DNA of 64,000 nt from Euryarchaeota archaeon UBA88 (GCA_002499545.1 DAME01000004.1:15577-79576), one strand, 5' to 3'. Shown: positions 22,101 through 58,687, counted from the first letter of the stretch. A program made the numbers and translations. The notes: generated from the sequence alone by a model not told the origin.

Positions 22101-24573
22101 CGTCATCCCACGACCAGTTTACCGTCATCGGAATACGTATTGCAACCATTCCGAATGAATCAGTGGTCGATGTACAATTGGCCACATCAAACTGAATGAT
22201 TCCATCACCATCGCTTACCACAGAGCATGCATCGCCGCGCTCCCAGTCGAAAGCTGGGTTTTCGCCGTACGAGTTATTGAGCGCAATGAGGACTTTCGTT
22301 ACTCTGTCTACTTCATCACTTGGAGCAACTCGAACCTCGAGATTTCGAGCAATACCATCTGGGGCGAGCATGCCACCCTCCATGCTAGCATCGATCACCC
22401 GTGTCTGCATCTTGTACGAGATGTCAATGTTTGAAATCTTAACACGGCCGGAAGTAGCTGCTTTAACTGCGATTGGAATCAAGACATCACCCTCGCCGTT
22501 CTCAGGAATAATGGAATTGAAAGAATCGACCAAGGTCGGTGCATTCTTTACATCTACCGAAACAACCGAATCGTCGCTGGCTATGACTGCTGATTCATTG
22601 AGGAAAAGCAGTGACTCCCAATCCCAAACCAAATCGTTACCGACATCCAACATAGGTCGGTCGGGGTAGCCTTCTTCATAATCAAGGGTGAATGAATCAA
22701 CAAGCGGTGTCAGTAGTGGGTCAGTGCTCGACATAGTTACCGCATATCGTATTGTGTCACCTGCTTCGGTCGACGGGAAACTGACCTCTTGATTGTTCGT
22801 TGCCGGAAGCCAGCTGGAACCATTATCGTTTGAGACTTGAACCAAAACAGAAGTTCCAACGGGAACATCCGCCACCCACGAAGGACGAACTTTACCGACT
22901 TTGGTTCCAGTAGTCAACGGGCTAGAAGTCCAACTTCCGGATTGAAGATATTCAGTTGAGTATTCGACATCAACCCACCAAGATACAGCCGTGGATCCAA
23001 TCAGTTGGGCTTTCCATACCAATTCTGTCCCCGGATAATCGAAGTGGATTGTCGAATTCGAAGTCACAGACTCCCAATGCGTGCCGTTGTCTGCAGAAAC
23101 CCAGTAATCAACTCGGTCGCCGACAGAAGCGGCTGACCAATATGTTTCAACGTTAACGCCGAGTACGGGGTCATCTGAATGAGTAACTGGGCCGTACCAC
23201 GTTGTTGTTCCAGGTGCTGGTGTCGTTTTGTATTGCCAACCGGTTCCATACTCTCGGTAGTACAACGTTGAAGATGCCCAAGTAGAGTAGCCGCAATCAA
23301 CGGTCACAAATCGGTTACCATCGTACTGCAAACCGTATCCGAGAGAAGACAGCAAACGTGTACCGGTTTGGGGGACTAGAGAAGTTGATGAACCTGAAAC
23401 GGCCCATGCTTCCAAATTGTCTTTATCGTTGCTCGAAGTTCCCTTTTGGCAGCGCATGAAAAAGGTTGTTTCGTTGACTTCAAGCCCACGGACTTGCTGT
23501 CCAGTTTTCCCGCATTCCCATGAACTACCAGACGATGAAGAGTAGGAATACATGTCTTCGCCGCGAGTATATTGTCCGTCGGCTTGGTCACCGAAAGTAT
23601 AGGGTACGATTCGTCGTTGAGCGTTGTGAACAATCCACACCTGGTCACTGGAACGGTCGTATGCAATTGCGGTATAATCCGAATACTGTGGTGAAACGTC
23701 GTACGAATCGATGCATGTCCAAGTATCATCACGTGAAATGTCGAGTTCTAACACACGATGATACTGCGTAGGTGCAGACGATGAGTAGTGATAGCGATAA
23801 CCAGAAAGAATTGCAAACATTCGTTCATCGTCGGTGATGGTCCAATCTCGGAATCCATAGCTTCCGTAGTAGGAACTAGGGTGCAAACTTGCAATCGTAC
23901 ACTCACCTTGGTCCAGAGTAATAACCGATTCTTTGGTTGCATTGTTCGGATACAAACGATGAACGATGTTGCTGAATGTAGAGGTGCTCCATGTCGACAT
24001 GAACAACCAGTCATGGTGCTTGAGAATAGCACCCTGACTCTGCTTCATCAAATTGGTTGATGTTTTGAGTACTTGTTGTGAAAATCGACTCTCAGTTGCG
24101 TTCGAGGTGTGCGGTTGGCGTATGGCGTACGATCCATTGTCCAGCCAAGCATCAGATTCGTTGTTGACAACTTCATCGTATCCGTGGGCAAAAAATTCGT
24201 TTGAAGTGTTAGAAAACGCCAAACTGAGGTCACCACTACGAGCATCAACAGAGGAAGAGGTCCCTTCAATCCAGTCATCTCTTTCATCGGCCATCGTCTG
24301 ACTCCACCCAGTTGCGGAGGCACCTGATAAGGTCATGGAAACATCGGTAACCAAAGCACCCTTTGGAACTGAAACCATGGCACCAGAGTCAGGATTAGCA
24401 CCTTGGTAGAGCGCCACGTATTCACTGGAACCATCGTGAAGAGTGTAAATGTGACGCGATACACCCGTCGCTTCAGCAGGAGTAATTACGTGGTCAGCAA
24501 GGGGGCTCATCGGTGCTAAAACCATGACTAAAAAGAGCAGCAACATTACGCCGCGCCCGTCTTCTCGCTTCAT
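19150..24573 (-). CDS. Giant surface protein (1807 aa): signal peptide, Asp-box (BNR-like) repeats, C-terminal TM and Pro-rich cytoplasmic tail
   Basis: Signal peptide GVMLLLFLVMVLAPMSPLA. Asp-box-like S-x-D-x-G-x-x-W motifs VSADNGTHW and VSNDNGSSW. TM helix FSIVLYLIALLSLSMAMWMLV near the C-terminus, then a P/A/Q-rich tail ending LPAGWTQHQWEHFGWQYVEALKK. AGGGGGGT lies 7 nt upstream of the ATG. Confidence 0.7.
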   Translation of the reverse strand: MKREDGRGVMLLLFLVMVLAPMSPLADHVITPAEATGVSRHIYTLHDGSSEYVALYQGANPDSGAMVSVPKGALVTDVSMTLSGASATGWSQTMADERDDWIEGTSSSVDARSGDLSLAFSNTSNEFFAHGYDEVVNNESDAWLDNGSYAIRQPHTSNATESRFSQQVLKTSTNLMKQSQGAILKHHDWLFMSTWSTSTFSNIVHRLYPNNATKESVITLDQGECTIASLHPSSYYGSYGFRDWTITDDERMFAILSGYRYHYSSSAPTQYHRVLELDISRDDTWTCIDSYDVSPQYSDYTAIAYDRSSDQVWIVHNAQRRIVPYTFGDQADGQYTRGEDMYSYSSSSGSSWECGKTGQQVRGLEVNETTFFMRCQKGTSSNDKDNLEAWAVSGSSTSLVPQTGTRLLSSLGYGLQYDGNRFVTVDCGYSTWASSTLYYREYGTGWQYKTTPAPGTTTWYGPVTHSDDPVLGVNVETYWSAASVGDRVDYWVSADNGTHWESVTSNSTIHFDYPGTELVWKAQLIGSTAVSWWVDVEYSTEYLQSGSWTSSPLTTGTKVGKVRPSWVADVPVGTSVLVQVSNDNGSSWLPATNNQEVSFPSTEAGDTIRYAVTMSSTDPLLTPLVDSFTLDYEEGYPDRPMLDVGNDLVWDWESLLFLNESAVIASDDSVVSVDVKNAPTLVDSFNSIIPENGEGDVLIPIAVKAATSGRVKISNIDISYKMQTRVIDASMEGGMLAPDGIARNLEVRVAPSDEVDRVTKVLIALNNSYGENPAFDWERGDACSVVSDGDGIIQFDVANCTSTTDSFGMVAIRIPMTVNWSWDDESGTQALVSVEDDLGLAVTAWETESLDLVIENDIQLDGLRVFEETGRELYSLDWVRGGFNLSFTGGIHFQNSQLSPLAGQFSLRVLGQNVTYDGDPIGEPMVLAQEQNPAFGEYNITFKSPIQSEPGGMVFYVEAVDTPNGSTYTNAGYNTIRLILDGNSPLVLSSTPSDGSERHAGPPAPGGQAVSVIVQDSVDPPTQLTLNYWIGCKASEAIGCSDYNFDGLPNSDEYELKTLSSPDTQSGGLNIFDGLIDDSMLQHGQKVSYFVTGSDPQQNAIAMGGGPVCPDSSLPCGYVPGETAPNWDNDLGTYQIRVEFEPQLDLDNSTILGHDDGAPLHPGIPYTAQIVLSDRNGWQDIQYIQLALGGDFDDDESSIYITLSKGLDDAPVASMESGSSNIAVSNLYSSVSLAEENNSIIKISARFQLTWTFPESFDTDGASLIIPKISVTDLPCNVGEVTPCFESTAGFGNDAWSLDNDFRFDTMDGHIRAVELRDGTNHYNTEFDETLIGAGQALRVNGRVLFSEDETPAPAGAFDVTFGDYDNVWTTSTRDDGEFSLDLLIPSVPSGHLDLRLGLDDLPGFALDETSVIPRVRLAVDNSRPTISAISLNDVSSSSPLSIGACGDLLVMLETLDDYGFDLDEPAVLHYRVRAGEAEISRGSVPLPDTTPFGGQFFWTGSLDLTDTGATTLLPSYTVEVWVSGSDSAGNPFDTIGNSISEPIASWSLALLGPSIDLDSDMSSFSWDDPSPVENQEVGMNFEVKNDGGKGDVAFVLQRAVEGGFWQDVARYDAVATAGQSVTGTLSTVADGSSSDALEFRLLVLVDEVEMDRKTLTPLLIKEETIRDGDALAQQAQEGRFSIVLYLIALLSLSMAMWMLVMNRRIRSEAFEVAAEDQTAEVLEELDGGKTIPELDMSNVPPPAGLTLSQPPIQADPVPTVQQPAPVQAVAAAPRAPPPLPPTGLPAGWTQHQWEHFGWQYVEALKK

Positions 24574-24644
24574 TTGTTTGACCCCCCTTCATTCGACCAT
24601 GCGGTGCGAGGGATTTGAAACATACCCCTGCACATGACGGTGCA

Positions 24645-27600
24645 TCATCCTGTTTGACGTGAATCATAACGGATTGGAGAGGAGTCCCCTCGAATTCCAT
24701 CTTCCTCATCATCATGGACTTCAAACCAGTCAACAAGCCAGTCTCCATCGGAATCCCAATTCGTTGGATCGGTACCTTCTGCGATATGGTCATCGTCCAA
24801 ATCCAGCAGATACCAACCGTATTCATGTTCTCCAACATCACGGACAGGAGCCGAATTTGGTGAACCGGTGTAGTAAATTTCCCAAGCATCGGTACGGTTA
24901 CCTGCAAGATGAACAACATCATTGCTCGAGTCAATAACGAGGAAATTGGTATCACGATCATCCACAATGTAGGCGAACCGAATATCGTTGGAAGAAGATT
25001 GATCCATTTTTAGGTAATTTTCGCTGCTAGCACCGGTGTCGTCAAGTTTGAGAAGTGATGCCCTCAATTGCCACCATTCGGTTACGATTTGTCCATCGTG
25101 AATCAATCCACTCAACCGAACTGCATTGGGTGATGAGAGGTCGGAATCGGTAATTGCATAAAATTCTTGGAAATTCGTGTACGGTTCGTAAACACACCCC
25201 GCCCCGGAACAGTCCCAATTTCCGTCTTCATCGGGGTCATAGTTTGCATCGATTGGATCAGCAGGGTTCATTGTGAACCAGGTGAAAGCAAGGTCGGGGC
25301 GAGATAGAATCCCTTCGGAGCCTTGCTGGGAAAGCGGCAAGCAGGAATTGGTTGCAGTCGTACATGCACCGCCAGTCGACGCATCAATCCACACGACTTT
25401 GATTTGCAGGAATGAACTGAAATTATCATTCGATTCATTCCAAGCCTTCGCATATTCAAACCAGTCAGGAAGCATGTCACCGTCTGTATCATTATCACTC
25501 GGATTGATTCCGTACTTGAAGACCTCACGCCCATCGGATAAATTGAAATCTTGAGTGTGAGAGGTTACCAATCCGTTTGATACGGTGGTAACATACGACA
25601 CGCTATCGGCATCTGAGTCATTTAGGTCCGGGCGTGTTTGATTATCCCACTCCATCCAATTGGTGAAAGGTAGATCGCCAATTCCAGGTTGAATTACAGC
25701 AGTACTTTGGGAGAATTCACGTCCGTCCCACGTACCTTGGACCGCAGGGATATCGAACGAAGTTCGGTCGTACCAACCATCGTGGTCACCGTCATAATTG
25801 ACATCCCAAGGATTCAACGGATTGGCAGCCCAATGGTTCTCAGTAGTCACATCGTCCATTCCGAATGTCGCATAGCAGTATTCCCAGCCATCCTCGATAC
25901 CATCGGAATCTGAATCCACGCTTGTGGGGTCGGCCACGCCAAGTAGAGTGCTGTTGAAGTTGTTCTCGTCGAATTCGTTAATCATGTCCATTCGATCGGC
26001 GCTTGCCTGACTCTTCGAAACAAAATCATTGTACAGTGACTGACGAGCTTCAATATAACTGAGGCCCTGTTCTTCAACATAAGCTTCAATAGCATCGGTT
26101 CCGAAATCCATGATTCCAATCGATGTTGGTACTGAAAAACGGTCGAGATACTTACCCCACGTTCGTGATTCCCATTCACGAAGATTCGTGAATCGTTCAT
26201 CCATTGAGAGATTTCCATCACCGTCGCAATCAAAACTATCGCCATCGGTATCGAGGTTGACGTCGCTGTCAATGAGTGGGTTCATACTCCAGCGATTCTC
26301 TTCAAGATCCCACACCGTGAACCAGTATTCAAATCCGTCATACATTCCATCGTCATCGGTATCTGGATTGGTCGGGTCTGTCATTCCAAGCAGCATTGAC
26401 AAAATGGGGTTCGGCGGGACGCCTGCCTGCCAGTCATTGAAATCTGCCAGCAAGCGCTTGCCACGGGTTTCCTTCGTGATGAGAATATTGAACACACGTT
26501 GAGCTTTCTCAGTCGGTTGCTGAACGTCGCCGTCGATGTGCAACAACGGAGCATCACTGGGGTGGTCGATTCCGTTTTCAGGACTTGAATTAGCTAGTGC
26601 AAACTCTTTGCTGTCAATCAAACCATCTCCATCGCCGTCAAAGTTCCCGTCACCTGCCACAAGAGGGTTCAGCGTCCACGTTTGTGCAGTGAGGTTCCAG
26701 GAAGTGAACAACTGTTCGATACCGTCGATCATTCCGTCGCCATCTGAATCGACGTTGTTTGGGTCAGCAGTCCATCCCGAGCGATTAATCTGGTCACTCG
26801 TGATGAATGAGCCAAAGGAGGATTCGACTGCATTTCCTGGCCACTGTTGGAGGGCGAAGGCCGAACCTACAGTCGTAACAAACCATTGTGGAGCTGAACG
26901 GTTCGCATTCGTTTCCGAATATTCTGGAGCAATGGCATTGTATTCTTCCCAATTCGCCATTCCATCATCATCAGCATCTTGCCAACGATCAACAGGGTCA
27001 AGGGGGTTCAAAGTCCACTCGTCAGCCAGCACATCCCAGCGAGCAAACCAAATTTCCCAGCCGTCTGGCATTCCGTCGTTATCCGAATCTGCATTGAGCG
27101 GATCTGATGCACCCACACTGGTGACGCTCTGGAGAGCCGTAACTGCTCCGGATGCGCGTTCACCAAATGTCGCTTCAGGTTCACCTTGCAAACTAATGTT
27201 GTCAAACAGGTCGGTTGTGAAACCGTTTGGAAGTGTTTCGCCGGAGAGAGTCTGGTTGTTCAAAAACAAATTCGAGCGAACGTGGAATTCCAAGTAGTTC
27301 ACGAATGCTTCTGAATCTTGCAAAATTCCGTCGTGGTTGATATCGTATCCGTCTCCATCTGGATTTTCAAATGCGTCCGACGCATTCAGTGGATTCACAC
27401 CTGTTCGAGAGGGGTCCCATGTGCAAGAACCACCTGATTCCCAGCCATCAGGGAGAGAATCCCCGTCAGAATCAATGTTGTTCGGATCAGCTTCAAACCA
27501 TTCGAGGCTTGAATTGACAGATTCGCCGTGAGATTCAAACAGCAGGCCTTCCGTTGCAGCACCTCGGACCAGTGACCACTGGTATTCACAGAGATTCGCT

Positions 27601-30398
27601 AAGCCGTCCCGATCAGCGTCCCAATTAGCATCTTCGGCACGATTCGGGTCCAACGTCCAGTTATTTCCTCCAGTAAAACTCGAACCGACCCATCGCCGAT
27701 GTTCGATTTCCCAACCATCCGGCATTCCATCCCCGTCACTGTCAGCGTTGGTGGGGTCAGTCCCCATGTCAGGACTGGAAAGAGCAAGGTACGTACTGTT
27801 CGCAGTCAATGTAGCGTCGTCGTCGCAAATGTATTCCATTTGCACTGAATAGTGACACCAGAGAGTAGTTGATTCGTAAAAGAATCCGAAGTACTCTTCA
27901 CCGTCACCAAGCCCATCACCGTCTGTATCACCAGCAGAAGGGTTGGTAGAATTGTATCCGTTTTCGGTCGTTGAAGTATAACGGAATTCATCGAGGTTCG
28001 TCCAAAGGCGTTCCAAAAATCCGTCATCGAGTTGATCAAGATCGAGTCCGTCGCCATCGGGGTCAAACAATGCGTCCCAAGGATCGGTAGGATCCAGGCC
28101 ATTCGCCACTTCCCAACCATCGGGCATTCCATCATTATCCGAGTCGTTTGCTCCGGGGTTCATGAGCTCTAAATTTGCATAACGACCAGGCGATGAACCA
28201 GCATACACAGTCGTATTACCGTCAAGCAACATCGTATTCAGCGCCACAATCTGCCCGTAAATTGGTGCTTCATCTTGCATCCCATAAACGGCAGAATAAT
28301 CACCGTCAATGGCCCATGTACCTCGTTGACTTCCGACCAAGATTTCATCACCAGTTGGATACAATGAATGGATGTTGTTGTACTCGCGAAGGTACTTCCC
28401 CTCGATACCAGGATGCTCCAAGAGACCGCTGTGGGAGATAGAATCGTCAATGATATTCAGCATGTGCACTCCGGAGGGTGTGCCGAACCACAACACTTGG
28501 GCGTTCGAGGAAGACGGGCCATCGAGTACCAGCGTTCGCACCTCAGCAGGATTAGCAACCATTCCAAACGACAAAGAACGTAGTTGGTCGATTTCTGTTG
28601 GATACGGGGTAATCTCAGTCGAGTAATAGAATCGCCATGACGGCTCAAATTCACCGCGTGCAGTGGATGTTTCGCCGATGAGAAGACCGTGATTTGTACC
28701 TACATATAGGGTATTTGCACCACCACCTGCAGGACCATGAGCGAGAGAGGAGACAGTGGAATTTGAAAGCCTCAAAGCCGACTCAAGACCTGTCGCTATC
28801 GAATAGATTTGGGAGATATCCGTGGAGGAAGTGACGTCAAACACCGCCCCTTCACCTGCAGAACCTAAGCCGAGAATCTGCGTGCTCTGACCCTCGACAT
28901 TGAGTTCAGTGATGGAAAAAATTTCTTCAGTCATCGACCAGTCCCATGTAGAAAGTTCTCCAAAGTCACCATTCGCTTGTATTGGAGCCGTAATCAGTCC
29001 GACATTGGATGCGAACGCCATGGCGAACATTGAGCCGTCAATTGAAAGAGGAATCCCCTGATGGAGTTCAACGCCTTGTGGCATCCAGTGGTCATAACTC
29101 GACATCGCAACATGGTCAATGACGGTTAATCCGTACCGAGTTGTAACGTACATCATCGATTCATCGACATCGATGTCTCGAACATCATGATGTATGAGAC
29201 TCACCGTGTCTGAGTCCGCAATAAATGAAAGAGGCATCGAACTCGAGAGTGCGTCAATGTCTCCGAGGGGAACCGTTTTCAAACCTGGAATCACAGAATT
29301 ACCGTTGTCTTCATGCACGAAGTATTCCTGAAGAGTGGACAAAGCCTCTCCGAAATCAAGAGCAGTGAGAGTTCGACTCACGTCCGGCGAGATACCCCCA
29401 TCCCTATTGGCGTCCCATCCATCGAGGTCCGGGTCAAGCAAAGCGTTGGTCCGGTTCAAAGGTTCAAGTCCAAAATGAACTTCCCATCCATCCGGAATTC
29501 CATCACCAAAGGAAGGGAAAAGACGACGCACGGAGAATCCATCCCAGTGATATCGGTCTGAATCTTCCAAAAGCGGGTCAGTTCCCAGCCATAGGTCTTC
29601 ATCGAGCACGTTGGTTGCATTCGTTGTACAAGCGGCAAGAAGATTCTGGAACGTTGCATTCGGTCCAGTAGGAATGTACGGCCAATTCTCGAACACTGAG
29701 CCGTCAGGGAGTGAGGCAGAACACCACAGACCGTCAAGTTCAGTGGTATGGTACGACGGAGCACCTTGGATATACTCTTCAGGCGAAGAGTAACGTTCAG
29801 TTGTCGATAATACACCATCTCGATTTACGTCAAACCCGTCTTCGTCGGGGTCATCGTACAAATCCGAAGCGTTTAATGGATTGAATTGTGGACAATCGTA
29901 TCGTAGAGTGATAGAGTCATACCCTCCAATTCGCTCACACATGTAGACTTCATAACCATCGGGCATGCCGTCACCATCGGTGTCTGAATTGCGTGGGTCA
30001 AGATAGGATCTTTCACCTTCACTGTCCACAATACCTGTCAAACCACGCGGAAATCCAGGAGCGGTACAATTTGCCGGATAGGGCCAACAATACTCTTCGG
30101 TAGAATTCAAGCCATCTCGATCGTTGTCTACAAGTGCGTCGGAGGCGTCGTCATTATTCATGCCGGGGATGATGACTTCTCTGCCGTCAACACTCGTCCA
30201 ATTCATCCATTCTTCGAACAGGTTTTCATGGACGTCAGGGATTTTGTCCCCGTCGGTATCCGTCGAAGGCGGCTTGGAACCATCGGTCGTATCTGGGTGG
30301 AGGTTTGAGACGGGTGAAACTGCTGGGAATTGAGACATAAACAGTAAACTTGCAACGACTGCAAGTGTTGTTAGAAGAGTGGTTAAACTTCGTCGCAT
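24645..30398 (-). CDS. Giant secreted calcium-binding-repeat protein (about 1917 aa) with thrombospondin type 3-like repeats and a central beta-propeller
   Basis: I count more than 20 D-x-D-x-D-G-x-x-D type motifs by eye, for example DSDGDGMPDGWE, DSDNDGMPDGWE, DTDDDGMYDGFE, DSDGDSLPDGWE and DADRDGLANLCE. The central region (about 28170-29300) has repeated xxGTxxGL blades (LYVGTNHGLLIG, LWFGTPSGVHML, ILVGSQRGTWAI, MYVTTRYGLTVI). I see no C-terminal TM. The start is uncertain: GTG 30485 (ORF track), ATG 30440/30437, or ATG 30398 (MRRSLTTLLTTLAVVASLLFMS, the best signal peptide). Confidence 0.7.
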   Translation of the reverse strand: MRRSLTTLLTTLAVVASLLFMSQFPAVSPVSNLHPDTTDGSKPPSTDTDGDKIPDVHENLFEEWMNWTSVDGREVIIPGMNNDDASDALVDNDRDGLNSTEEYCWPYPANCTAPGFPRGLTGIVDSEGERSYLDPRNSDTDGDGMPDGYEVYMCERIGGYDSITLRYDCPQFNPLNASDLYDDPDEDGFDVNRDGVLSTTERYSSPEEYIQGAPSYHTTELDGLWCSASLPDGSVFENWPYIPTGPNATFQNLLAACTTNATNVLDEDLWLGTDPLLEDSDRYHWDGFSVRRLFPSFGDGIPDGWEVHFGLEPLNRTNALLDPDLDGWDANRDGGISPDVSRTLTALDFGEALSTLQEYFVHEDNGNSVIPGLKTVPLGDIDALSSSMPLSFIADSDTVSLIHHDVRDIDVDESMMYVTTRYGLTVIDHVAMSSYDHWMPQGVELHQGIPLSIDGSMFAMAFASNVGLITAPIQANGDFGELSTWDWSMTEEIFSITELNVEGQSTQILGLGSAGEGAVFDVTSSTDISQIYSIATGLESALRLSNSTVSSLAHGPAGGGANTLYVGTNHGLLIGETSTARGEFEPSWRFYYSTEITPYPTEIDQLRSLSFGMVANPAEVRTLVLDGPSSSNAQVLWFGTPSGVHMLNIIDDSISHSGLLEHPGIEGKYLREYNNIHSLYPTGDEILVGSQRGTWAIDGDYSAVYGMQDEAPIYGQIVALNTMLLDGNTTVYAGSSPGRYANLELMNPGANDSDNDGMPDGWEVANGLDPTDPWDALFDPDGDGLDLDQLDDGFLERLWTNLDEFRYTSTTENGYNSTNPSAGDTDGDGLGDGEEYFGFFYESTTLWCHYSVQMEYICDDDATLTANSTYLALSSPDMGTDPTNADSDGDGMPDGWEIEHRRWVGSSFTGGNNWTLDPNRAEDANWDADRDGLANLCEYQWSLVRGAATEGLLFESHGESVNSSLEWFEADPNNIDSDGDSLPDGWESGGSCTWDPSRTGVNPLNASDAFENPDGDGYDINHDGILQDSEAFVNYLEFHVRSNLFLNNQTLSGETLPNGFTTDLFDNISLQGEPEATFGERASGAVTALQSVTSVGASDPLNADSDNDGMPDGWEIWFARWDVLADEWTLNPLDPVDRWQDADDDGMANWEEYNAIAPEYSETNANRSAPQWFVTTVGSAFALQQWPGNAVESSFGSFITSDQINRSGWTADPNNVDSDGDGMIDGIEQLFTSWNLTAQTWTLNPLVAGDGNFDGDGDGLIDSKEFALANSSPENGIDHPSDAPLLHIDGDVQQPTEKAQRVFNILITKETRGKRLLADFNDWQAGVPPNPILSMLLGMTDPTNPDTDDDGMYDGFEYWFTVWDLEENRWSMNPLIDSDVNLDTDGDSFDCDGDGNLSMDERFTNLREWESRTWGKYLDRFSVPTSIGIMDFGTDAIEAYVEEQGLSYIEARQSLYNDFVSKSQASADRMDMINEFDENNFNSTLLGVADPTSVDSDSDGIEDGWEYCYATFGMDDVTTENHWAANPLNPWDVNYDGDHDGWYDRTSFDIPAVQGTWDGREFSQSTAVIQPGIGDLPFTNWMEWDNQTRPDLNDSDADSVSYVTTVSNGLVTSHTQDFNLSDGREVFKYGINPSDNDTDGDMLPDWFEYAKAWNESNDNFSSFLQIKVVWIDASTGGACTTATNSCLPLSQQGSEGILSRPDLAFTWFTMNPADPIDANYDPDEDGNWDCSGAGCVYEPYTNFQEFYAITDSDLSSPNAVRLSGLIHDGQIVTEWWQLRASLLKLDDTGASSENYLKMDQSSSNDIRFAYIVDDRDTNFLVIDSSNDVVHLAGNRTDAWEIYYTGSPNSAPVRDVGEHEYGWYLLDLDDDHIAEGTDPTNWDSDGDWLVDWFEVHDDEEDGIRGDSSPIRYDSRQTG

Positions 30399-30630
30399 TC
30401 CATGACCTGCCCACAAAGCGTACGCTTCGCAATACATCATCCCTCTCACACCACTTATGAGGATGATGGAGCGATGTTCGTACACGCCTTCATTGATTCA
30501 CTCCTAAAATACGGATTTTTCTTTGACCTACGATGGATGGTGATGACCCACCCCCTCCCAAATGCAACTTCTCCAAGCGAACCAAGCGGTGTCTTCAAAG
30601 GCCTCTCGCGACCGCTGTGACATCGATACC

Positions 30631-31449
30631 ATGGGCATGACGCTAACGCATCTCGGAACTGGAAGTCGTGGAAATGCGACGCTCCTTGAAACCGAACATG
30701 CCAAAGTCATCATCGACCAGGGTTTTAGTGGAGTTCAATTTGAAAAGCGGCTCGGAAGAATGAACCTTGAACCCACCGATATTGACGCGATTTTCATCAC
30801 ACATCACCACGGAGACCACGGCGGAGGCGCAGCACTGGCACAGAAACGCTGGAGCATTCCCGTATGGGCCAATAAACGGACTGCTGAAGCCCTTGACCTC
30901 GACACTCAACTAACGAACTATTTTGAGGCCTTGGACATGATTGAAGCTGGAAAAGATTTGCAACTTCTTCCAGTACCCGTACCGCACGCCGATTCAGATA
31001 ACGTTGCGTTTGTAGCGAGCCATCATGGTCGTCGAGCAGCGGTCATCACTGACCTGGGTTCTTGGACCGATGAATTGGTGACACATGTGCGGGGTTGTGA
31101 GCACATTTCAATCGAAGCCAATTACGATGAAAAACGGTTGATGAACGGTCCGTATCCGTACTCGCTCAAAGAACGAATCAGTGGCAGAGGAGGTCACCTT
31201 TCAAACGATCAGACGGGTCAATTTTTGTCACTGGTCTGCACACCTGAGACAAAGAGCATAAGCTTAACTCACCTGTCTGGAAAAAACAATCTTCCACACC
31301 TCGCAGAATCGACTGTTTTGTATTATATCGAGGAAGTGTTTGGCGGCGATATATGGATTTGTGGTCAGGACGGGCCGGAACAGTCTCATTACATCGCCCA
31401 TGATGAATTGAAAGTAGAATTCAACGATAAAATCGCAGATCTTGGATGA
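30631..31449 (+). CDS. Metallo-beta-lactamase fold hydrolase
   Basis: LTHLGTGSRGNATLLE at the N-terminus and the HxHxDH motif ITHHHGDHGGG, with later His/Asp ligand contexts (VPHADSD, THLSGKNN). ATG 30631 is preferred over the 30562 extension. Confidence 0.75.
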   Translation: MGMTLTHLGTGSRGNATLLETEHAKVIIDQGFSGVQFEKRLGRMNLEPTDIDAIFITHHHGDHGGGAALAQKRWSIPVWANKRTAEALDLDTQLTNYFEALDMIEAGKDLQLLPVPVPHADSDNVAFVASHHGRRAAVITDLGSWTDELVTHVRGCEHISIEANYDEKRLMNGPYPYSLKERISGRGGHLSNDQTGQFLSLVCTPETKSISLTHLSGKNNLPHLAESTVLYYIEEVFGGDIWICGQDGPEQSHYIAHDELKVEFNDKIADLG

Positions 31450-31504
31450 ATACGATTTCCAATGAATCACCCCCCTATGGGGGGGTGTCAAGGTGAATGG
31501 CTAA

Positions 31505-32590
31505 ATGATACCCAGCCGTGAGGTGTCTGTGAACGCACAGCGCAAGCATTCCTCGAGCCCATCCCTTCGCAGGGATACACGGGCAGTGAGCGAAGTGCTT
31601 GGCGTAGTGATGATGCTTGCAATGGTTGTCACCATTATGGGCGGGGTTTGGATTTTCCTAAACCCCTACATTTCAGATTTCGAAGACAATACAAATTGGA
31701 ACAGCGCAACAGGTATTGCTGAACGGTTTGAAGACCGAATTGACGTAGCAGGTGGTGCTCCGGAGGGGACAGGTATCCGCCACACTCTTGCACTCCAATC
31801 AACAATGATACGGCCAATCGAAAAAGTAGAAACCTGGACAATAGCTGCTGATTTAGTTCCAAACGAACGCGTGACTGTCCGACATCTCAACACCTCAGTG
31901 GTAGGAATTTACGCCATGAATGAAACGGCTCGAAGTATCACCATCGAGACTCCGACACAAACAGAACACTTCGAGTTCAACAGTTCGCATCAAGAAGTTA
32001 CCATCAACCATACTTCATCACGCCAGCATTGGATGACGATCACCGTCTTCAACCACGAGGGGGAGCCACTTCATCGAAGCGTATCTTACATTGTTTCCGG
32101 AATACAAATCACGACGATGCTCGGTCTTGGAGAGCATCAAATCGCCCTCATGAACGATGCACGAGTTGAACGCTTTCCAAACGAACCGTGGTCGGTAACA
32201 CAGTTTCCGAACATTGAACTCGATACGTTGGTCAACGGTGAACACAGACTTTCTATGGTGCTCAATGATGTCACCATCAACGGCACACTCGGATCTGGAA
32301 ACAACATAGGAATGAACATGATTTCTCAAGGACCAATGACGCTTTTCACCGGACCTGCTTACGACGTCACCTTCACTGTCACAAACGCACTGAACGATGT
32401 CATCACACCCCAATACCACGACTATCTCCTGAACGATTATACCCTTCATCGAGCATCTGGAACGCTCGACACCTATGTTGGATACGCGCCGTATTTACGC
32501 GCCAGCGGAGCAGATGGTTTCACCGTCGAAACCCATGGAGCTCCGCTATACCTTGAAGTCGATGTGCAACGAGTGGAGGTTTCACGATGA
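31505..32590 (+). CDS. Archaeal type IV pilin-like protein (class III signal peptide), 361 aa
   Basis: The N-terminus RRDTRAVSEVLGVVMMLAMVVTIMGGVWIFL matches the archaeal pilin N-terminal pattern (basic residues, small residue, VSxVLGxxLMLAIxV). AGGTGA lies 8 nt upstream of the ATG. The stop overlaps the next start (ATGA). Confidence 0.6.
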   Translation: MIPSREVSVNAQRKHSSSPSLRRDTRAVSEVLGVVMMLAMVVTIMGGVWIFLNPYISDFEDNTNWNSATGIAERFEDRIDVAGGAPEGTGIRHTLALQSTMIRPIEKVETWTIAADLVPNERVTVRHLNTSVVGIYAMNETARSITIETPTQTEHFEFNSSHQEVTINHTSSRQHWMTITVFNHEGEPLHRSVSYIVSGIQITTMLGLGEHQIALMNDARVERFPNEPWSVTQFPNIELDTLVNGEHRLSMVLNDVTINGTLGSGNNIGMNMISQGPMTLFTGPAYDVTFTVTNALNDVITPQYHDYLLNDYTLHRASGTLDTYVGYAPYLRASGADGFTVETHGAPLYLEVDVQRVEVSR

Positions 32591-34797
32591 ACATCAACCT
32601 TCAACGCGATGAAGACGCAGTCTCCGCAGCTGTTGCAACGGTACTTCTGTTTGGTGGTGTTATCTCCATCATTGGTCTGATGATGGTCTCAATGATTCCG
32701 GTCATTGAAGAATTGGAAGGTTCCATTGAGCGGCACGACATGTCGTCGCAAATGTCGTTACTCGCCCACCAAACCGCTGCACTGAGTGAAACTGGCATGC
32801 CAGGAGACTCCACAGAAATTGAACTCATTCCGGTCGATGGACAATTGAAATGGAACATGATGCAGAGCAGCATGTGGTATTCTGCAACCTGGGCAGACGA
32901 TACCACATTCAGAGTCCAAGGTGCCCTCGATTATGATGATGAATTGAGTATTCGCCATCCTGAATCAATGAACACTGCCGTGTGCATTGACGATTTACGA
33001 TTGGGTCCTGCTAATCCGTATATCTTCACCGTGCCCAATTGGGTCGAAGGAGCAATCATGACTGCATCACCAGGACTGGCACTTCCGCTTGGACCAATTG
33101 AAATCGAAGTCTGGAACGAATTTGGCCGCCTATCACAACACGAACTCATGGTGGACGGCGTCCTTTCATTGGACCTCGAAACATTCGACAATATCTCAAT
33201 CCAGTCATCGCACATGCTCCACATGCTATACTCGCAAGGCACGGGTGGAACCGCTCTGATGACACCGAATGACCCAAGTCCAATCGACAGCACTGGCCGA
33301 TCATGGTCGATTCCACTTCCTGCAGGATCCAGCCAAATCCACGTTATCAGCGAACAAGCAAATCAGATTGTCATCTCAAATGAATCAAACACTGCCTACT
33401 TCGCACTCCCTAGTTCACAAAACCAAGTCGGTGTGGCGTTCTCTCACCAGTTTGAAACTGCCGTACAGAGCGTTGTTCACATCACTACCAGCACGGATGC
33501 GAGGATTTTACTCCAAACAAATCTCGACCTCGAATCTGGAAAAATGGCCTGGCCGAGTACAGACGGTCACTATCTTGGCCATTCGTTCATCACCCCACCA
33601 CTCGAAGGGGAAATGACATTCACAAACCCCGGAGCAGAAAGCGTGACCATCACGTGGAGAGGAGGAGGTTTGTCTGTCGCAGCAAATCAAAGCATTGGAT
33701 TTTCATGGCCTCCAGCAGGAATTAACGGAGCACCAATGCTTGACGCAAACGGAGATATTTCCGTTACATGGCAAGCAAACACCAATGGTTCTGGCGTGAT
33801 GTTGCAGTCCGCAGATGATACTGGAGCGTCATCAGGAAAGCAGCACACATTCCACATCCAAGGCGAACAAGACCATCATGCGGAGTTGTTTCGTTCCGGC
33901 ACCAATGCTGAGTGGAACCTCTCGGGTATAACAAACGCTAACGGAACACTGATCGATTCGACATCAACAACAGCAATCAATCTCTCTCAAGGCTCAAGCC
34001 AACTGAGAGTCGAAGACGGTCACCCCTTGCGCATTCACCTACGTGCAGGAACAAACGGGCTCATTCAGGCAATGCATGACGGAGCGCAACGTTGCGTGGC
34101 CATCAATGTTCAAGCCAGTGGCTGGATCTTAGCAGAACTACCCTGGCTGTCAATGAGTGGTAGAAGTGAAGTTGACCTCAAACGAGCGTGGGCTTCAGGA
34201 ACACACCCAGCCAGCATGCAAATCTCCCTTCTTGGTGTCAGTGGTGCATCAAACTACGCAACGCTCGGTACTGTTTGGGGATTCCATCTCTCACGCCTCA
34301 GTTACGAGTTTTCCTCATCGATCATGGGGATGGAAGTGGCATTCGTTGGCGGTGCTGTCGTGACGAACCATCCAGAGTTTGAACCCTACATCGTGGAGGC
34401 ACCATTGGATAGGGGTGGGCCCGGCCCTCGCTTTGCTGCTACCGTTCCATCACTCCATCCAACTGCGGATAGTGTTCAAGGAGCCGGTACCATGAATGTC
34501 GATATTGAACTAGTTGACCGGTCGTCATTGGCCTCAGCTGTCGCATATGAGGTTCGACGAGGCTGGTCAAGTCCGTACGGCGTTGCAATAGCCGACGCTT
34601 CTGCGGATGGATTAGAGTCAAGTGAAGATTGGACCATCTACCCCGGTCGAATTGACTTACTCACCGATTATGTTGGATGGGTTCCTGACCCTTCGTACGC
34701 CACATCAGAAGCCATTTGGCATACCAACGGCGAACCGATTCAATTCACTTTGCAAATGGCAGCTCTCAACGCCCACATGACGGAGGCAATATCGTGA
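32587..34797 (+). CDS. Large pilin-like / class III signal peptide protein, 736 aa
   Basis: The N-terminus QRDEDAVSAAVATVLLFGGVISIIGLMMVSMIPVI is a charged stretch followed by one hydrophobic helix. The rest of the protein is beta-rich. GGAGGT lies 6 nt upstream of the ATG. The start overlaps the previous stop. Confidence 0.5.
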   Translation: MNINLQRDEDAVSAAVATVLLFGGVISIIGLMMVSMIPVIEELEGSIERHDMSSQMSLLAHQTAALSETGMPGDSTEIELIPVDGQLKWNMMQSSMWYSATWADDTTFRVQGALDYDDELSIRHPESMNTAVCIDDLRLGPANPYIFTVPNWVEGAIMTASPGLALPLGPIEIEVWNEFGRLSQHELMVDGVLSLDLETFDNISIQSSHMLHMLYSQGTGGTALMTPNDPSPIDSTGRSWSIPLPAGSSQIHVISEQANQIVISNESNTAYFALPSSQNQVGVAFSHQFETAVQSVVHITTSTDARILLQTNLDLESGKMAWPSTDGHYLGHSFITPPLEGEMTFTNPGAESVTITWRGGGLSVAANQSIGFSWPPAGINGAPMLDANGDISVTWQANTNGSGVMLQSADDTGASSGKQHTFHIQGEQDHHAELFRSGTNAEWNLSGITNANGTLIDSTSTTAINLSQGSSQLRVEDGHPLRIHLRAGTNGLIQAMHDGAQRCVAINVQASGWILAELPWLSMSGRSEVDLKRAWASGTHPASMQISLLGVSGASNYATLGTVWGFHLSRLSYEFSSSIMGMEVAFVGGAVVTNHPEFEPYIVEAPLDRGGPGPRFAATVPSLHPTADSVQGAGTMNVDIELVDRSSLASAVAYEVRRGWSSPYGVAIADASADGLESSEDWTIYPGRIDLLTDYVGWVPDPSYATSEAIWHTNGEPIQFTLQMAALNAHMTEAIS

Positions 34798-35276
34798 TCA
34801 ATGGAAAACTGAAACGCGACGAGGTGGCTGCTGCAACCGAATTAGGTTACATTTTCACATTCCTGCTCGGTGTTCTACTCCTCACAATGTTCAGCTTATG
34901 GGCGTATGAAATTGAAACTGCAACCCGTGAACGATGGAATGTGAATGCGATTCAGTCGAATTTGGACGACCTTGCTGCGGCAGTAGAGCGAGCGGATGAA
35001 GCAAGCCGGATTGGATCAATCGAATATGCGGAAAAAGTCACGTGGAGACTTACAGAAGCTGATGAAAGTCGCTTAACGCTCACCCTCACGGATACGACGA
35101 TTGAACTCTATCATGAAGGAGGGGACCTGGACACCAATGTTTCGATTTCTGGAACGGGAGCTGGAACTCACCAAGGAAGTGTTTTGCTTGCTGGAGCGAC
35201 ATCGATTTGGGTCGTCCACTCCGATGGCGTGACTTCGATTCAATACGACCGTCCGCAGTCTGAAAAACAAGCCTAG
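34794..35276 (+). CDS. Small pilin-like protein, 160 aa (GTG start)
   Basis: GTG 34794 overlaps the stop of the previous gene (GTGA) and is preceded by GGAGG plus 7 nt. The N-terminus KRDEVAAATELGYIFTFLLGVLLLTMFSLWAY has the same charged-then-hydrophobic architecture. The ORF-track start at 34716 lies inside the preceding gene. Confidence 0.45.
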   Translation: MINGKLKRDEVAAATELGYIFTFLLGVLLLTMFSLWAYEIETATRERWNVNAIQSNLDDLAAAVERADEASRIGSIEYAEKVTWRLTEADESRLTLTLTDTTIELYHEGGDLDTNVSISGTGAGTHQGSVLLAGATSIWVVHSDGVTSIQYDRPQSEKQA

Positions 35277-37795
35277 CGGCCCATGACCGCAGCGTGCACT
35301 TGAGCCTGAACTTCACGCATGCGAGACTTTGCTCCGAGTTCTCGGAAGACGGCAAGAGCGCGTTGAAGGTATTCCATTCGACGTGGCTTGTCCGGTGCAA
35401 CGCCACCTAGGCGTGACAGAAGTTCGCCCATTTGCATTCGTAAGTCGTTAGCCTCAGCGATGACCAAGGCTTCACGGTAATGCTCCATTGCATCCTCCGC
35501 ACGGCCCGCATCCTGCAGTACTTCCCCAAGTAGAATCGTTATCTCGACCAGTGAAAGTAAATCTCCTGCTTGGCCCATGGTTTCTAATGCGCTGGAATAG
35601 TGGTGAGAGGCGACATCTGCATCACCAACCTTCGCGTAATAGCGACCAAGAACTGCTTGAGCACGAGCGTGAAGCAAAACATCGTTTTCGTTATCTGTTC
35701 GCTCAAAAGCAGCTAATGCATGGTCACGAGCACGGTCAATTTCGCCGAGTTCAATAAAGGCCCGCGCCAGAGTAAGTTGTGTACTAATCAGCGAAATATC
35801 GTCGGATTGTTGGAGAATCTTTTCTACTTCTCCATAGGCTTCAAGCGCCTTATTGCGATCATTCTTTCGACGGAGCAAGTACCCCATGTTGTTGTATGAA
35901 CGGGCTGCACCACGCTCGTCGCCAAATTCAATGAATTTTTCAAGAGCATCCCGGTGCATAGAGAGAGCTTTGTCTGCATCCCCTTGCTTCAATGCGATGT
36001 CCGCTAACGCTGCCAACACTTCAGCACCGAGCTTTGTTGCCTTGCCTGATTCAAGGTTTTGAGTGGAACGCAAAATCTCTTCAGCTTCAGAAAATCGACC
36101 CAAGAGAACGAGTAACTCACCTTGCTGCTGAAGAATTTGTGCTTTAATCGATACTTGGAGAGAATCCAGTGCGAGGTTTTCCATGAGACCGAGGAGTTCC
36201 ATGTGACCCTGGACAATCAAATCTCTACCTTCACCTGCTATCAGCAATGCGGCATTTTCGTGCTCATCGCTGCAAATCAGGTGGTAGATATGCTCAATGA
36301 TAATTTCAGCATTCTTGGATTGCTTCTGGTACCAAGTGCTGCATTTGGAGTGAAACTCTTTCTTCGTTTTTTCATCCAAGCTCCGCAAGAGAAATTCCCG
36401 AATGAGGTCGTGCACATCGTATGTATCAGTATCTGCGTGGCGTGCTAATCCCTGTTCAACTAGCGAATCAAGCTCATCGGTGTCCAAACCCTGTTCGGCC
36501 AATGCCGGCAACATTACTGGTTCACGGTAAATTGAAAGTGCGGAAAGAACGCGTTTCTGTTCAGCAGATAACTTCGAAAAAATCTCAACTGTAACATAGT
36601 TTTCCAACGTTTCATGAAATGCGCCTGCAGATGCACCCCGATTAATTAATTCCAATACCAAAGGATGTCCACGGGAAAGTCCGTGGATGTGGAGCCACTG
36701 CTGATCACCGAGGTCCTCGAAACTGCTGAGGAGGTGACGTCCCGCATCAGAATCGAGACCGTCGAGCGGTAGCACAAGACTCGCAATTCGTCCTTCAGCG
36801 TCTTTTGCAGGCACAACGGGTTTGAATGAACGAGAGAAAATGACCAGCCCAATCTCTTCTTCACTTCCAAGCAAACCCAAGGTCATCGCTTGAAAGGTCT
36901 GGTGCAAGGTGACATCAGCCACTTTGTGGAAGTCATCGATGACGATGAGCGTAGGAGTACCTTCGAGTGCATCGATTAACAACCGAGCAGCGTCGGCAGG
37001 TTTCGGGACGGGAGTTGCTGCAAGATAATCTGCAAAACTCGAATCACCAATATTCGCAAGCCAATCTGCTACTGCTTCAAAAAACGAGCGTGAACCTTCC
37101 CAGTCTTGGCAGCGGTGATAGAGAAGATTACGACGATGCATGAAGCGCTCAATGAGTTTCGAAGCAATCGTTGTTTTCCCAATACCGGCAATACCGGGAA
37201 CCAGGAGCGTGGTTGCACGCGCCTCAATCAAATTCGCCATATTATCAAGTTCTTTTTCTCGACCATAGAAGTGACGAAGTCGTGGGAGGTCACCAAGAGA
37301 GGTGACTAACTGTTTCTCCACATGCTTGGACAAATCTCGCTCGACCAAGTCAGCAGTCAGGGTACGGGTGTCGAGGACGCAATTATCATCCATGTAGCGT
37401 ATCACGTCAACAGGCCGCATGGAAAACGGGAGATGTTCGTTGAGTTCACCCAGCGTTGAAGTGATGATGGAACCGTCACTCATGATACTGCGGAGATTAA
37501 ATTCTCGCAGACGGTTCCAAGTATCTTCTGACAGGTGAATTCCTGAATCAGTAAGGAAGTAGGCCTTGCGTTTGCGCGACACACCCGTGACGTGGGCTTG
37601 GCGTTCAATGAGAAGGCCTTGGTCTTTCAACCCTGCAATAGCACGTGGTACGTTGGAGCGAGCAATCGCCACGGCGTTTGCAATCCCCATTTGAGAGAGC
37701 GCAAAAGGGACTTCAACACTGTTTTTGAAATCCGAATAATCCAGCAAATGAAGTAAGATCCTCTCTTGAACTCCAGGTTTGGGCTGAACAATCAT
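35273..37795 (-). CDS. wHTH - STAND/AAA NTPase - TPR regulator (MalT/AfsR-like architecture)
   Basis: The N-terminus is winged-helix-like (SQMGIANAVAIARSNVPRAIAGLKDQGLLIE). Then FYGREKELDNM...LLVPGIAGIGKTTIASK (Walker A) and TLIVIDDFHKV (Walker B). The C-terminal ~300 aa carries several TPR-like repeats (for example AARSYNNMGYLLRRKNDRNKALEAY). AGGTAGGTG lies 7 nt upstream of the ATG. Confidence 0.7.
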   Translation of the reverse strand: MIVQPKPGVQERILLHLLDYSDFKNSVEVPFALSQMGIANAVAIARSNVPRAIAGLKDQGLLIERQAHVTGVSRKRKAYFLTDSGIHLSEDTWNRLREFNLRSIMSDGSIITSTLGELNEHLPFSMRPVDVIRYMDDNCVLDTRTLTADLVERDLSKHVEKQLVTSLGDLPRLRHFYGREKELDNMANLIEARATTLLVPGIAGIGKTTIASKLIERFMHRRNLLYHRCQDWEGSRSFFEAVADWLANIGDSSFADYLAATPVPKPADAARLLIDALEGTPTLIVIDDFHKVADVTLHQTFQAMTLGLLGSEEEIGLVIFSRSFKPVVPAKDAEGRIASLVLPLDGLDSDAGRHLLSSFEDLGDQQWLHIHGLSRGHPLVLELINRGASAGAFHETLENYVTVEIFSKLSAEQKRVLSALSIYREPVMLPALAEQGLDTDELDSLVEQGLARHADTDTYDVHDLIREFLLRSLDEKTKKEFHSKCSTWYQKQSKNAEIIIEHIYHLICSDEHENAALLIAGEGRDLIVQGHMELLGLMENLALDSLQVSIKAQILQQQGELLVLLGRFSEAEEILRSTQNLESGKATKLGAEVLAALADIALKQGDADKALSMHRDALEKFIEFGDERGAARSYNNMGYLLRRKNDRNKALEAYGEVEKILQQSDDISLISTQLTLARAFIELGEIDRARDHALAAFERTDNENDVLLHARAQAVLGRYYAKVGDADVASHHYSSALETMGQAGDLLSLVEITILLGEVLQDAGRAEDAMEHYREALVIAEANDLRMQMGELLSRLGGVAPDKPRRMEYLQRALAVFRELGAKSRMREVQAQVHAAVMGR

Positions 37796-53362: not shown

Positions 53363-53429
53363 TTTTTTTCCCTCAAAGGTGTTTACGCGACAGCAGCAAG
53401 GCTGAAGCGTCTTCGCCACTGAAGACCCT

Positions 53430-58587: not shown

Positions 58588-58687
58588 CGTCAATCCCCTG
58601 TATACCGCCGTTTAGCGAAGGGGATTATCAAGGCGACCCCTCTTGGAGTCAAGAATCGTTGATTCAACGGGCAGGTACGGTAAGCCG

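Follow-up and report, generated by a model that had tools for sequence, protein, structure and literature searches.

Three consecutive genes on a contig of Euryarchaeota archaeon UBA88 (GCA_002499545.1 DAME01000004.1:15577-79576) encode proteins that begin in the manner of archaeal type IV pilins. The 64-kb stretch analyzed here, which we call the window, reaches 31.5 kb upstream and 28.7 kb downstream of this trio. The question raised by the locus is what such a set is for, and with what machinery it works. We estimate the chance to be about one in two that the trio is a co-translated type IV pilin-like set that works as follows: a peptidase of the PibD/FlaK type would process the leaders, and the products would form a low-copy complex of minor pilins or tip adhesins on a filament whose assembly machinery is encoded in trans, with the 736-amino-acid (aa) protein as the adhesive component.

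Gene Structure and Translational Coupling

The features of the trio are as follows:

31491-31496, plus strand: Shine-Dalgarno (SD)-like AGGTGA of gene 1, 8 nucleotides (nt) ahead of the gene 1 ATG
31505-32590, plus strand: gene 1, ATG start, 361 aa, pilin-like protein with a leader, a hydrophobic domain (H-domain) and an all-β ectodomain
32575-32579, plus strand: GGAGG SD of gene 2, within the 3′ end of gene 1, 7 nt before the start
32587-34797, plus strand: gene 2, ATG start, 736 aa, large pilin-like protein with a DUF7289-like N-terminus and tandem β domains
34782-34786, plus strand: GGAGG SD of gene 3, within the 3′ end of gene 2, 7 nt before the start
34794-35276, plus strand: gene 3, GTG start, 160 aa, small pilin-like protein with a leader and an H-domain

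The original prediction, made from the sequence without database searches, described three genes of 361, 736 and 160 aa joined by start/stop overlaps. Reading of the open reading frames (ORFs) and their junctions bears this out: ATGA at positions 32587-32590 links genes 1 and 2, and GTGA at positions 34794-34797 links genes 2 and 3. A GGAGG-type SD had been assigned to every gene; this is correct for genes 2 and 3, while gene 1 is preceded by an SD-like element only, as part of an AGGT[G/C]AATGGCTAA-ATG context that recurs across most related loci. The single N-terminal hydrophobic helix proposed for each product was also found, there being exactly one hydrophobic segment per protein. In the NCBI annotation, the three exact proteins appear as “hypothetical protein” (CMA63_03450/55/60).

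Predicted Class III Signal Peptides

In archaeal prepilins, position −1 is occupied by G, A or S and position −2 by a charged residue, the latter being described as critical for prepilin peptidases (PMC4371748). We prepared site logos and ortholog alignments from about 85 species. In the alignments of each family, the charged leader is variable and ends with a small residue, and the hydrophobic stretch after it is invariant. The leaders are 27, 11 and 12 aa long in the products of genes 1, 2 and 3, respectively, and each is followed by a single hydrophobic segment, so that the class III layout of a short charged leader ahead of a hydrophobic domain of ~20 residues is present in all three. The predicted elements are located as follows (arrows indicate cleavage sites):

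31505-31585, plus strand: predicted leader of gene 1 (residues 1-27), predicted cleavage RA↓VS
31586-31660, plus strand: H-domain of gene 1 (residues 28-52)
32587-32619, plus strand: predicted leader of gene 2 (residues 1-11), predicted cleavage DA↓VS
32620-32706, plus strand: H-domain of gene 2 (from residue 12)
34794-34829, plus strand: variable leader of gene 3 (residues 1-12), putative cleavage [A/G]↓AATELGY
34830-34907, plus strand: invariant H-domain of gene 3 (residues 13-38)

The corresponding logos are:

Gene 1: L-R-R-D-E-R-[A/G]↓VSEVLGV; position −1, A in 65 and G in 18; position −2 charged in 69 of 83
Gene 2: L-x-R-D-E-E-[A/G/S]↓VSAAVATVLLF; position −1, A in 62, G in 10 and S in 3; position −2 charged in 57 of 75
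Gene 3: L-x-x-D-T-x-[A/G]↓AATELGYIFTF; position −1, A in 75 and G in 13; position −2 charged in 42 of 88

As can be seen, position −1 is A, G or S and no other residue across the orthologs of all three proteins, in agreement with the class III rule. Position −2 is R in the gene 1 product studied here and in 67/83 of its orthologs; in the gene 2 product it is D, with E or D in 57/75 orthologs. The gene 3 family has D at position −4 in 86/88 sequences. L(−7), D(−4) and [A/G](−1) are common to the three proteins despite their unrelated ectodomains, as one would expect if a single enzyme recognizes all of them.

The predicted sites, RAVS in gene 1 and DAVS in gene 2, recur among PibD substrates of Haloferax volcanii: identical sites predicted by FlaFind are listed for its pilins PilA4-6 and PilA1/3 (PMC4371748, Table 1). 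The class III signal peptides of the original prediction are thus upheld for genes 1 and 2 by these hallmarks and by the weak, consistent Pilin_N/DUF7289 homology described below. Gene 3 shares the layout and the rule for position −1, but processing of this protein is uncertain because position −2 is V here and uncharged in about half of the orthologs.

Pilin-Type Homology is Confined to the N-Termini

Profile searches were judged by the Pfam gathering cut-offs, which are 25.2 bits for Pilin_N (PF07790) and 27 bits for DUF7289 (PF23960, a 238-position profile). Gene 1 of the window scored 23.9 bits with Pilin_N and 22.5 bits with DUF7289. Gene 2 scored 26.5 bits with DUF7289 over residues 11-90 and did not match Pilin_N, and gene 3 had no Pfam match. 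The DUF7289 matches of the window proteins covered only profile positions 1-79. The homologs of genes 1 and 2 are more telling: 27 of 30 gene 1 homologs match both Pilin_N and DUF7289 at E ≤ 0.01, 28 of 29 gene 2 homologs match DUF7289 (best E 7.3e-9), and two more distant homologs exceed the cut-offs, P0262 with Pilin_N (28.2 bits) and P0323 with DUF7289 (39.1 bits). Among 16 gene 3 homologs, two weakly match DUF7266 (best E 0.0013). The pilin-family search proposed at the outset therefore succeeds with the homologs, while genes 1 and 2 of the window itself stay just below threshold.

In hhalign comparison, genes 1 and 2 align over the leader and helix only (E 4e-4) and look like diverged paralogs at their N-termini. 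The leader and H-domain of gene 3 fall in register with the gene 1 and gene 2 profiles at a score that is not significant. PilA2 of Natrinema, a pilin with a solved filament structure, likewise aligns at its N-terminus in register with the gene 1 profile, at a non-significant E of 0.6. Searches of PDB sequences with the trio yielded nothing significant, the archaellin-type family PF01917 was not matched, and neither FlaF/FlaG nor archaellins occurred among PDB sequence matches at E ≤ 10. Some homologs bear the JGI names “FlaG/FlaF family” or “flagellin-like”; we rejected a FlaF/FlaG identity, since no sequence similarity was detected.

An exhaustive profile search of 1.84 billion representative sequences retrieved only 112 relatives of gene 1 at E ≤ 1e-3, nearly all of them from Poseidoniales or fragments, and it follows that the ectodomains are lineage-specific. 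This lack of ectodomain relatives outside Poseidoniales, together with sub-threshold Pfam matches of the window proteins that are confined to a low-complexity hydrophobic segment, would suit type II membrane proteins with a plain signal anchor and no connection to type IV pili, which had come to resemble pilins at the N-terminus by convergence. We consider this very improbable. Three unrelated ectodomains share one leader-end pattern, with position −1 limited to A/G/S over 85 species; the homologs mentioned above pass curated Pilin_N and DUF7289 cut-offs; and the residues just ahead of the helix are constrained in a way that anchoring alone would not require.

Conservation of the Trio in Poseidoniales

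The window derives from a member of the Poseidoniaceae, and the closest relatives of all three proteins belong to Candidatus Poseidoniales/Poseidoniaceae (marine group IIa, MGIIa). The gene content of the window is archaeal, including CDP-archaeol synthase, a DUF5591 protein of the archaeosine tRNA-ribosyltransferase type and an S15 protein with an S13/S15 N-terminal domain; its GC content is ~49%. A scan of GTDB found gene 2 relatives in the genomes of 228 species; 80 loci taken from it, together with five obtained by contig look-ups, make up the set of 85 species loci used below. The complete or near-complete MGIIa genomes that carry the trio include CM001443.1 (2.06 Mb), with gene 2 at about 1,429,805-1,432,033.

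Gene order and direct adjacency of the trio are kept in 85 of 85 loci. Gene 1 is present in 83 of them, and the remaining two contigs stop short of it. An NTGA overlap occurs at all 76 gene 1/gene 2 junctions and at 74 of 78 gene 2/gene 3 junctions, with an SD-like motif upstream at 66/76 and 72/78 junctions, respectively. The conservation of both overlaps and SD-like motifs indicates that translational coupling is a selected feature, the simplest reading of which is equimolar synthesis of partner proteins.

One complete copy of the block (giants, MBL, trio, STAND, β-helix, S8 and STT3 genes; see below) was found on contig NZEQ01000036.1 (L049), labeled “Verrucomicrobiales bacterium ARS100”; this contig is probably mis-binned.

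Two distant full-length relatives of gene 1, P0323 and P0336, lie on short contigs that carry no machinery genes, and two metagenome scans found no relatives of P0323. An attempt to trace distant relatives to type IV pilus machinery was therefore dropped. At both of these non-syntenic loci (P0336, L090:2478-2990; P0323, L086:5928-6347) the next gene is again pilin-like, one of the two next genes resembling gene 2 at its N-terminus (REAVAPVVATMLL) and the other resembling gene 3 there (IDYIMVFAISLMFF). Such gene pairs thus exist outside the Poseidoniales block.

Predicted Structures and the Place of Gene 3

The AlphaFold2 (AF2) model of the gene 1 product has a helix at residues 25-52 followed by all-β domains (mean pLDDT 66.5). 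In the gene 2 model, an N-terminal helix of 60 residues (9-68) precedes a confident tandem-β region at about 140-560 and a low-confidence part at 567-736. Foldseek searches of the PDB returned generic Ig-like sandwiches as the best matches of gene 1, none at E ≤ 0.001, and generic jelly-roll, sandwich and cupin-type matches for gene 2 with TM-scores ≤ 0.14. Beyond the helix, both proteins are thus all-β and have no specific structural or sequence relative. Classification by structure was abandoned, the Foldseek matches being generic and the PDB sequence matches not significant. The most conserved parts of the ectodomains, residues 296-338 of gene 1 and 564-723 of gene 2, are those that AF2 left unmodelled (pLDDT 24-41); possibly they serve as subunit interfaces.

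Judged by its sequence, the gene 3 product may consist of a long N-terminal helix and, after it, a small β domain. It has the size of a major pilin (160 aa) and is the best conserved of the trio (61-88% identity). No further pilin candidates turned up in the 64 kb when all ORFs of ≥60 aa were subjected to a crude FlaFind-like scan. This lack of another candidate, and hence of a major pilin gene in the window, fits an accessory set. Together with the size, conservation and suggested fold of gene 3, it would also fit a filament of the trio’s own, with the gene 3 product as its major subunit and the products of genes 1 and 2 as accessory or tip subunits. That arrangement appears quite unlikely to us, however. 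Gene 3 is the last gene of an operon coupled by start/stop overlaps, an arrangement that suggests synthesis in equimolar amounts and not in excess; it often has an uncharged residue at position −2 and does not match Pilin_N; and characterized archaeal major pilins are usually encoded by monocistronic or highly expressed stand-alone genes (PMC4371748, PMC4858521).

Assembly Machinery is Absent Nearby and Reported for the Clade

Pfam scans of all window ORFs of ≥150 aa detected no T2SSE/FlaI, T2SSF/FlaJ/TadC or A24 peptidase domains, in agreement with the original prediction that no ATPase, platform protein or prepilin peptidase is encoded within ~30 kb. Any machinery would thus have to act in trans. 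Among the large ORFs of the window, that of the adjacent STAND NTPase alone has a genuine Walker A motif. A further match to this motif, in the ORF at positions 57337-58593, was dismissed as a chance occurrence, the protein being of secreted type, β-rich and not an ATPase. More than four transmembrane (TM) segments were found in a single window protein, the STT3 giant described below.

The lack of nearby machinery had been presented as an oddity, and this view cannot be maintained. Euryarchaeal ATPase/TadC modules commonly serve sets of pilins whose genes lie elsewhere, and H. volcanii pilA1-6, for example, are unlinked to pilB3C3 (PMC4858521, PMC4371748). Since pilin genes apart from an ATPase/TadC module are usual in Euryarchaea, the absence of machinery genes here is not anomalous. 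H. volcanii alone has 47 FlaFind positives. An archaellum operon (FlaB/G/H/I/J) has been reported in all MGIIa genomes, and extra flaI, flaJ and tadC genes in North Sea MGIIa metagenome-assembled genomes (PMC6461757, PMC6336850, PMC6864105). It thus follows that machinery acting in trans is available in the clade. In the literature we found nothing on DUF7289, Poseidoniales pilins or a prepilin peptidase of marine group II (MGII).

A Conserved Genomic Block around the Trio

The trio belongs to a block whose conservation is rigid across the 85 loci; more divergent lineages show the same arrangement within the limits of the sequence retrieved for them. Two genes for giant secreted proteins on the opposite strand come first, followed by an MBL-fold hydrolase gene on the same strand as the trio, the trio itself and, convergent to it, the STAND, β-helix, S8 and STT3 genes. 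The members of the block and the accompanying features are as follows:

19150-30485, minus strand: genes for two giant acidic secreted proteins, one of 1946 aa with bacterial TSP3 repeats and one of 1807 aa without a Pfam match
30562-31449, plus strand: MBL-fold metallo-hydrolase gene, 295 aa from the ATG at 30562
31468-31487, plus strand: hairpin with an 8-bp G/C stem, CACCCCCC-TATG-GGGGGGTG, located between the MBL gene and gene 1 and read from the sequence
35273-37795, minus strand: STAND-type protein of 840 aa, MalT-like, with an N-terminal helix-turn-helix (HTH), an AAA_16 P-loop and C-terminal TPR
past the trio, minus strand: 1481-aa β-helix protein and S8 subtilase, with the STAND (HTH-AAA_16-TPR) and STT3/AglB genes
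43679-53419, minus strand: 3246-aa STT3/AglB fusion with at least 12 TM segments, an STT3/AglB core (PF02516, 1.7e-16; AglB_core-like) and a long region of CarboxypepD_reg-like repeats

The MBL gene immediately precedes gene 1, in the same orientation, at 80 of 85 loci; L087, L091 and L092, which are divergent lineages, share this arrangement. The gap between them is 0-56 nt, mostly 29-56 nt, and 1 nt in L091. Because the spacer is short and contains an SD with no obvious promoter, the MBL gene and genes 1, 2 and 3 are likely to form one four-gene transcript with the MBL gene in first place. The protein matches Lactamase_B_2 (2.4e-16) and Lactamase_B (1.8e-14) in Pfam, and its homologs are called at 269-272 aa, which matches a start at the ATG at 30631. 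It is generic and cytoplasmic, no signal peptide or TM segment being predicted in it, and its functional link to the trio is uncertain. The hairpin in the spacer (−18 to −22 kcal/mol) is restricted to the nearest clade, more distant lineages lacking it.

The STAND gene is convergent to gene 3, with overlapping stop codons (35273-35276), and keeps this position in 84 of 85 loci; its product is a candidate regulator of the block. The genes of the 1946-aa and 1807-aa giants stand beside the trio in 77/85 and 60/85 loci, respectively. In most Poseidoniaceae loci, the STT3/AglB giant adjoins the S8 subtilase and the β-helix giant. The N-glycosylation sequons showed no enrichment relative to shuffled sequence.

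Two other functions were tried and rejected. PADLOC gave no match for the trio and only generic matches for the MBL and STAND proteins, which speaks against a defense system. DNA uptake by pilin-like proteins with an MBL nuclease, as in ComEC, was set aside as unsupported, the MBL protein being generic and free of TM segments and a signal peptide; the MBL gene beside the distant relative P0336 is of another subfamily and divergently oriented. A 584-aa protein encoded at positions 61245-62999 (plus strand) has one N-terminal TM segment and weak matches to DUF4131, the N-terminal domain of ComEC, and to OB-fold families (E 0.003-0.03).

The rigid synteny of the trio with the two giant secreted proteins, the β-helix giant, the subtilase and the giant STT3/AglB protein, seen in 85 species and in divergent lineages, raises the possibility that the three proteins form a membrane-anchored complex under the envelope that is not a filament, in the manner of FlaF/FlaG or of the Sulfolobus bindosome. 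With leaders cut or not, such a complex would anchor, organize or help export the giants. The non-canonical −2 residue of gene 3, the JGI names of some homologs and the lack of major pilin and machinery genes nearby in the window are in line with it. We nevertheless regard it as unlikely, because similarity to FlaF/FlaG or archaellins was not detected in the searches described above, the trio has no solute-binding domain, and the strict A/G at position −1 in conjunction with RAVS and DAVS argues for processing. In addition, synteny within a single order may reflect merely a stable genome architecture.

A more elaborate idea, speculative and improbable in our estimate, combines the trio and its neighbors in an organelle specific to Poseidoniales. 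Here the trio would make up a short pseudopilus-like stalk that anchors or presents the flanking TSP3-repeat and β-helix giants, with the MBL gene co-transcribed, the STAND protein in control and AglB providing glycosylation.

Proposed Mechanism of the Pilin-like Set

The minor-pilin or tip-complex reading stated at the beginning is built on the observed gene structure, coupling, conservation, signal-peptide layout and N-terminal Pilin_N/DUF7289 homology, and makes a minor-pilin, tip-adhesin or pseudopilus role of the trio plausible. The start/stop overlaps would provide near-equal amounts of the three proteins, and Sec would insert these into the membrane. A prepilin peptidase of the PibD/FlaK type, encoded elsewhere, may then remove the short charged leader after A/G(−1), at RA↓VS in gene 1, at DA↓VS in gene 2 and, less certainly, at A↓AATELGY in gene 3. 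The hydrophobic N-terminal helices, now exposed, would join the trio into a low-copy 1:1:1 heteromeric minor-pilin or tip complex. Such a complex would sit on, or prime, a type IV pilus-like filament, either an adhesion pilus or the archaellum, built by a trans-encoded FlaI/PilB-FlaJ/TadC pair. The large tandem-β ectodomain of the 736-aa gene 2 protein would be its adhesive part.

Several points weigh against this proposal. Position −2 of gene 3 is V here and is uncharged in 52% of orthologs. The window proteins score just under the curated Pfam cut-offs, and the matches to Pfam families are limited to the first 55-85 residues. The AF2 models are of medium quality, and Foldseek retrieved no pilin, archaellin or adhesin with them. 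The trio is locked in a conserved block with genes that do not belong to type IV pilus systems (MBL, STAND, the giant secreted proteins and the giant AglB), and so deep a linkage could point to another role. The case for machinery serving the trio of this particular genome is drawn from the literature on the clade, none being encoded within the window, and complex formation and adhesion are what we purely infer.

Comparison with Known Systems

The closest parallel is provided by H. volcanii PilA1-PilA6, which are PibD substrates with Pilin_N domains. Their predicted tetrapeptides are the same (RAVS as in gene 1, DAVS as in gene 2), their mature N-termini follow the same VS-x-V-[IL]-G-V pattern, and they too are encoded away from the assembly genes pilB3-pilC3 (PMC4371748). 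In contrast to the trio, they are small major pilins, each able to build a pilus alone. At 361 and 736 aa, the products of genes 1 and 2 show no similarity to them past ~55-80 residues, and gene 1 stays just under the Pilin_N cut-off.

The size of the proteins, especially the 736 aa of gene 2, had been considered far beyond that of typical major pilins. Size is less unusual than was supposed, since arCOG02911 comprises duplicated all-β, FlaFind-positive proteins of 250-550 aa that are predicted minor pilins (PMC4858521). Like the trio, arCOG02911 (Makarova et al. 2016)/DUF7289 proteins are variable in length and prone to duplication, with a FlaFind-type N-terminus and an all-β Ig-like body (PMC4858521). 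The size and fold class of gene 1 would suit arCOG02911. arCOG02911 genes usually stand beside ATPase/TadC and major pilin genes, whereas the trio has none nearby, and with DUF7289 the match is limited to the N-terminal third of the profile.

Accessory pilin sets have a precedent in Methanococcus maripaludis, where the minor pilins EpdA, EpdB and EpdC are clustered away from the major pilin gene and are jointly needed for piliation (PMC4858521, PMC4371748). The Epd proteins differ from the trio in that they are small EppA substrates with Q at position +1, and they have no sequence relationship to it.

In bacteria, tip or priming complexes are formed by GspH-I-J-K of the type II secretion system and by FimU-PilVWX with PilY1 of the type IVa pilus, where a low-copy cap primes the filament and carries an adhesin. 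The likeness to the trio, a few co-expressed pilin-like proteins of which one is much larger, is a functional analogy only: we detected no homology, and archaeal signal-peptide rules apply to the trio.

The archaellum stator proteins FlaF and FlaG likewise combine an N-terminal hydrophobic helix with a β-sandwich, and their small size resembles that of gene 3; they differ from the trio in lacking any sequence similarity to it. In MGIIa genomes, the archaellum operon with its own FlaG is placed elsewhere (PMC6336850).

Significance for Marine Group II Archaea

MGII archaea are abundant and uncultured, and they are thought to attach to particles and algae. If the organelle outlined above were real, it would be a dedicated particle-attachment module of the most abundant archaea of the surface ocean. 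General knowledge of archaeal type IV pili is left unchanged by our proposal, in which the trio would be one more lineage-specific pilin set encoded in trans. The adhesion factors discussed for MGII so far are limited to the archaellum operon, thrombospondin-like proteins and flotillins. To these, the trio operon, conserved across the family and including one ectodomain of ~700 aa, adds candidate adhesion or tip components that can be tracked in metatranscriptomes and metaproteomes.

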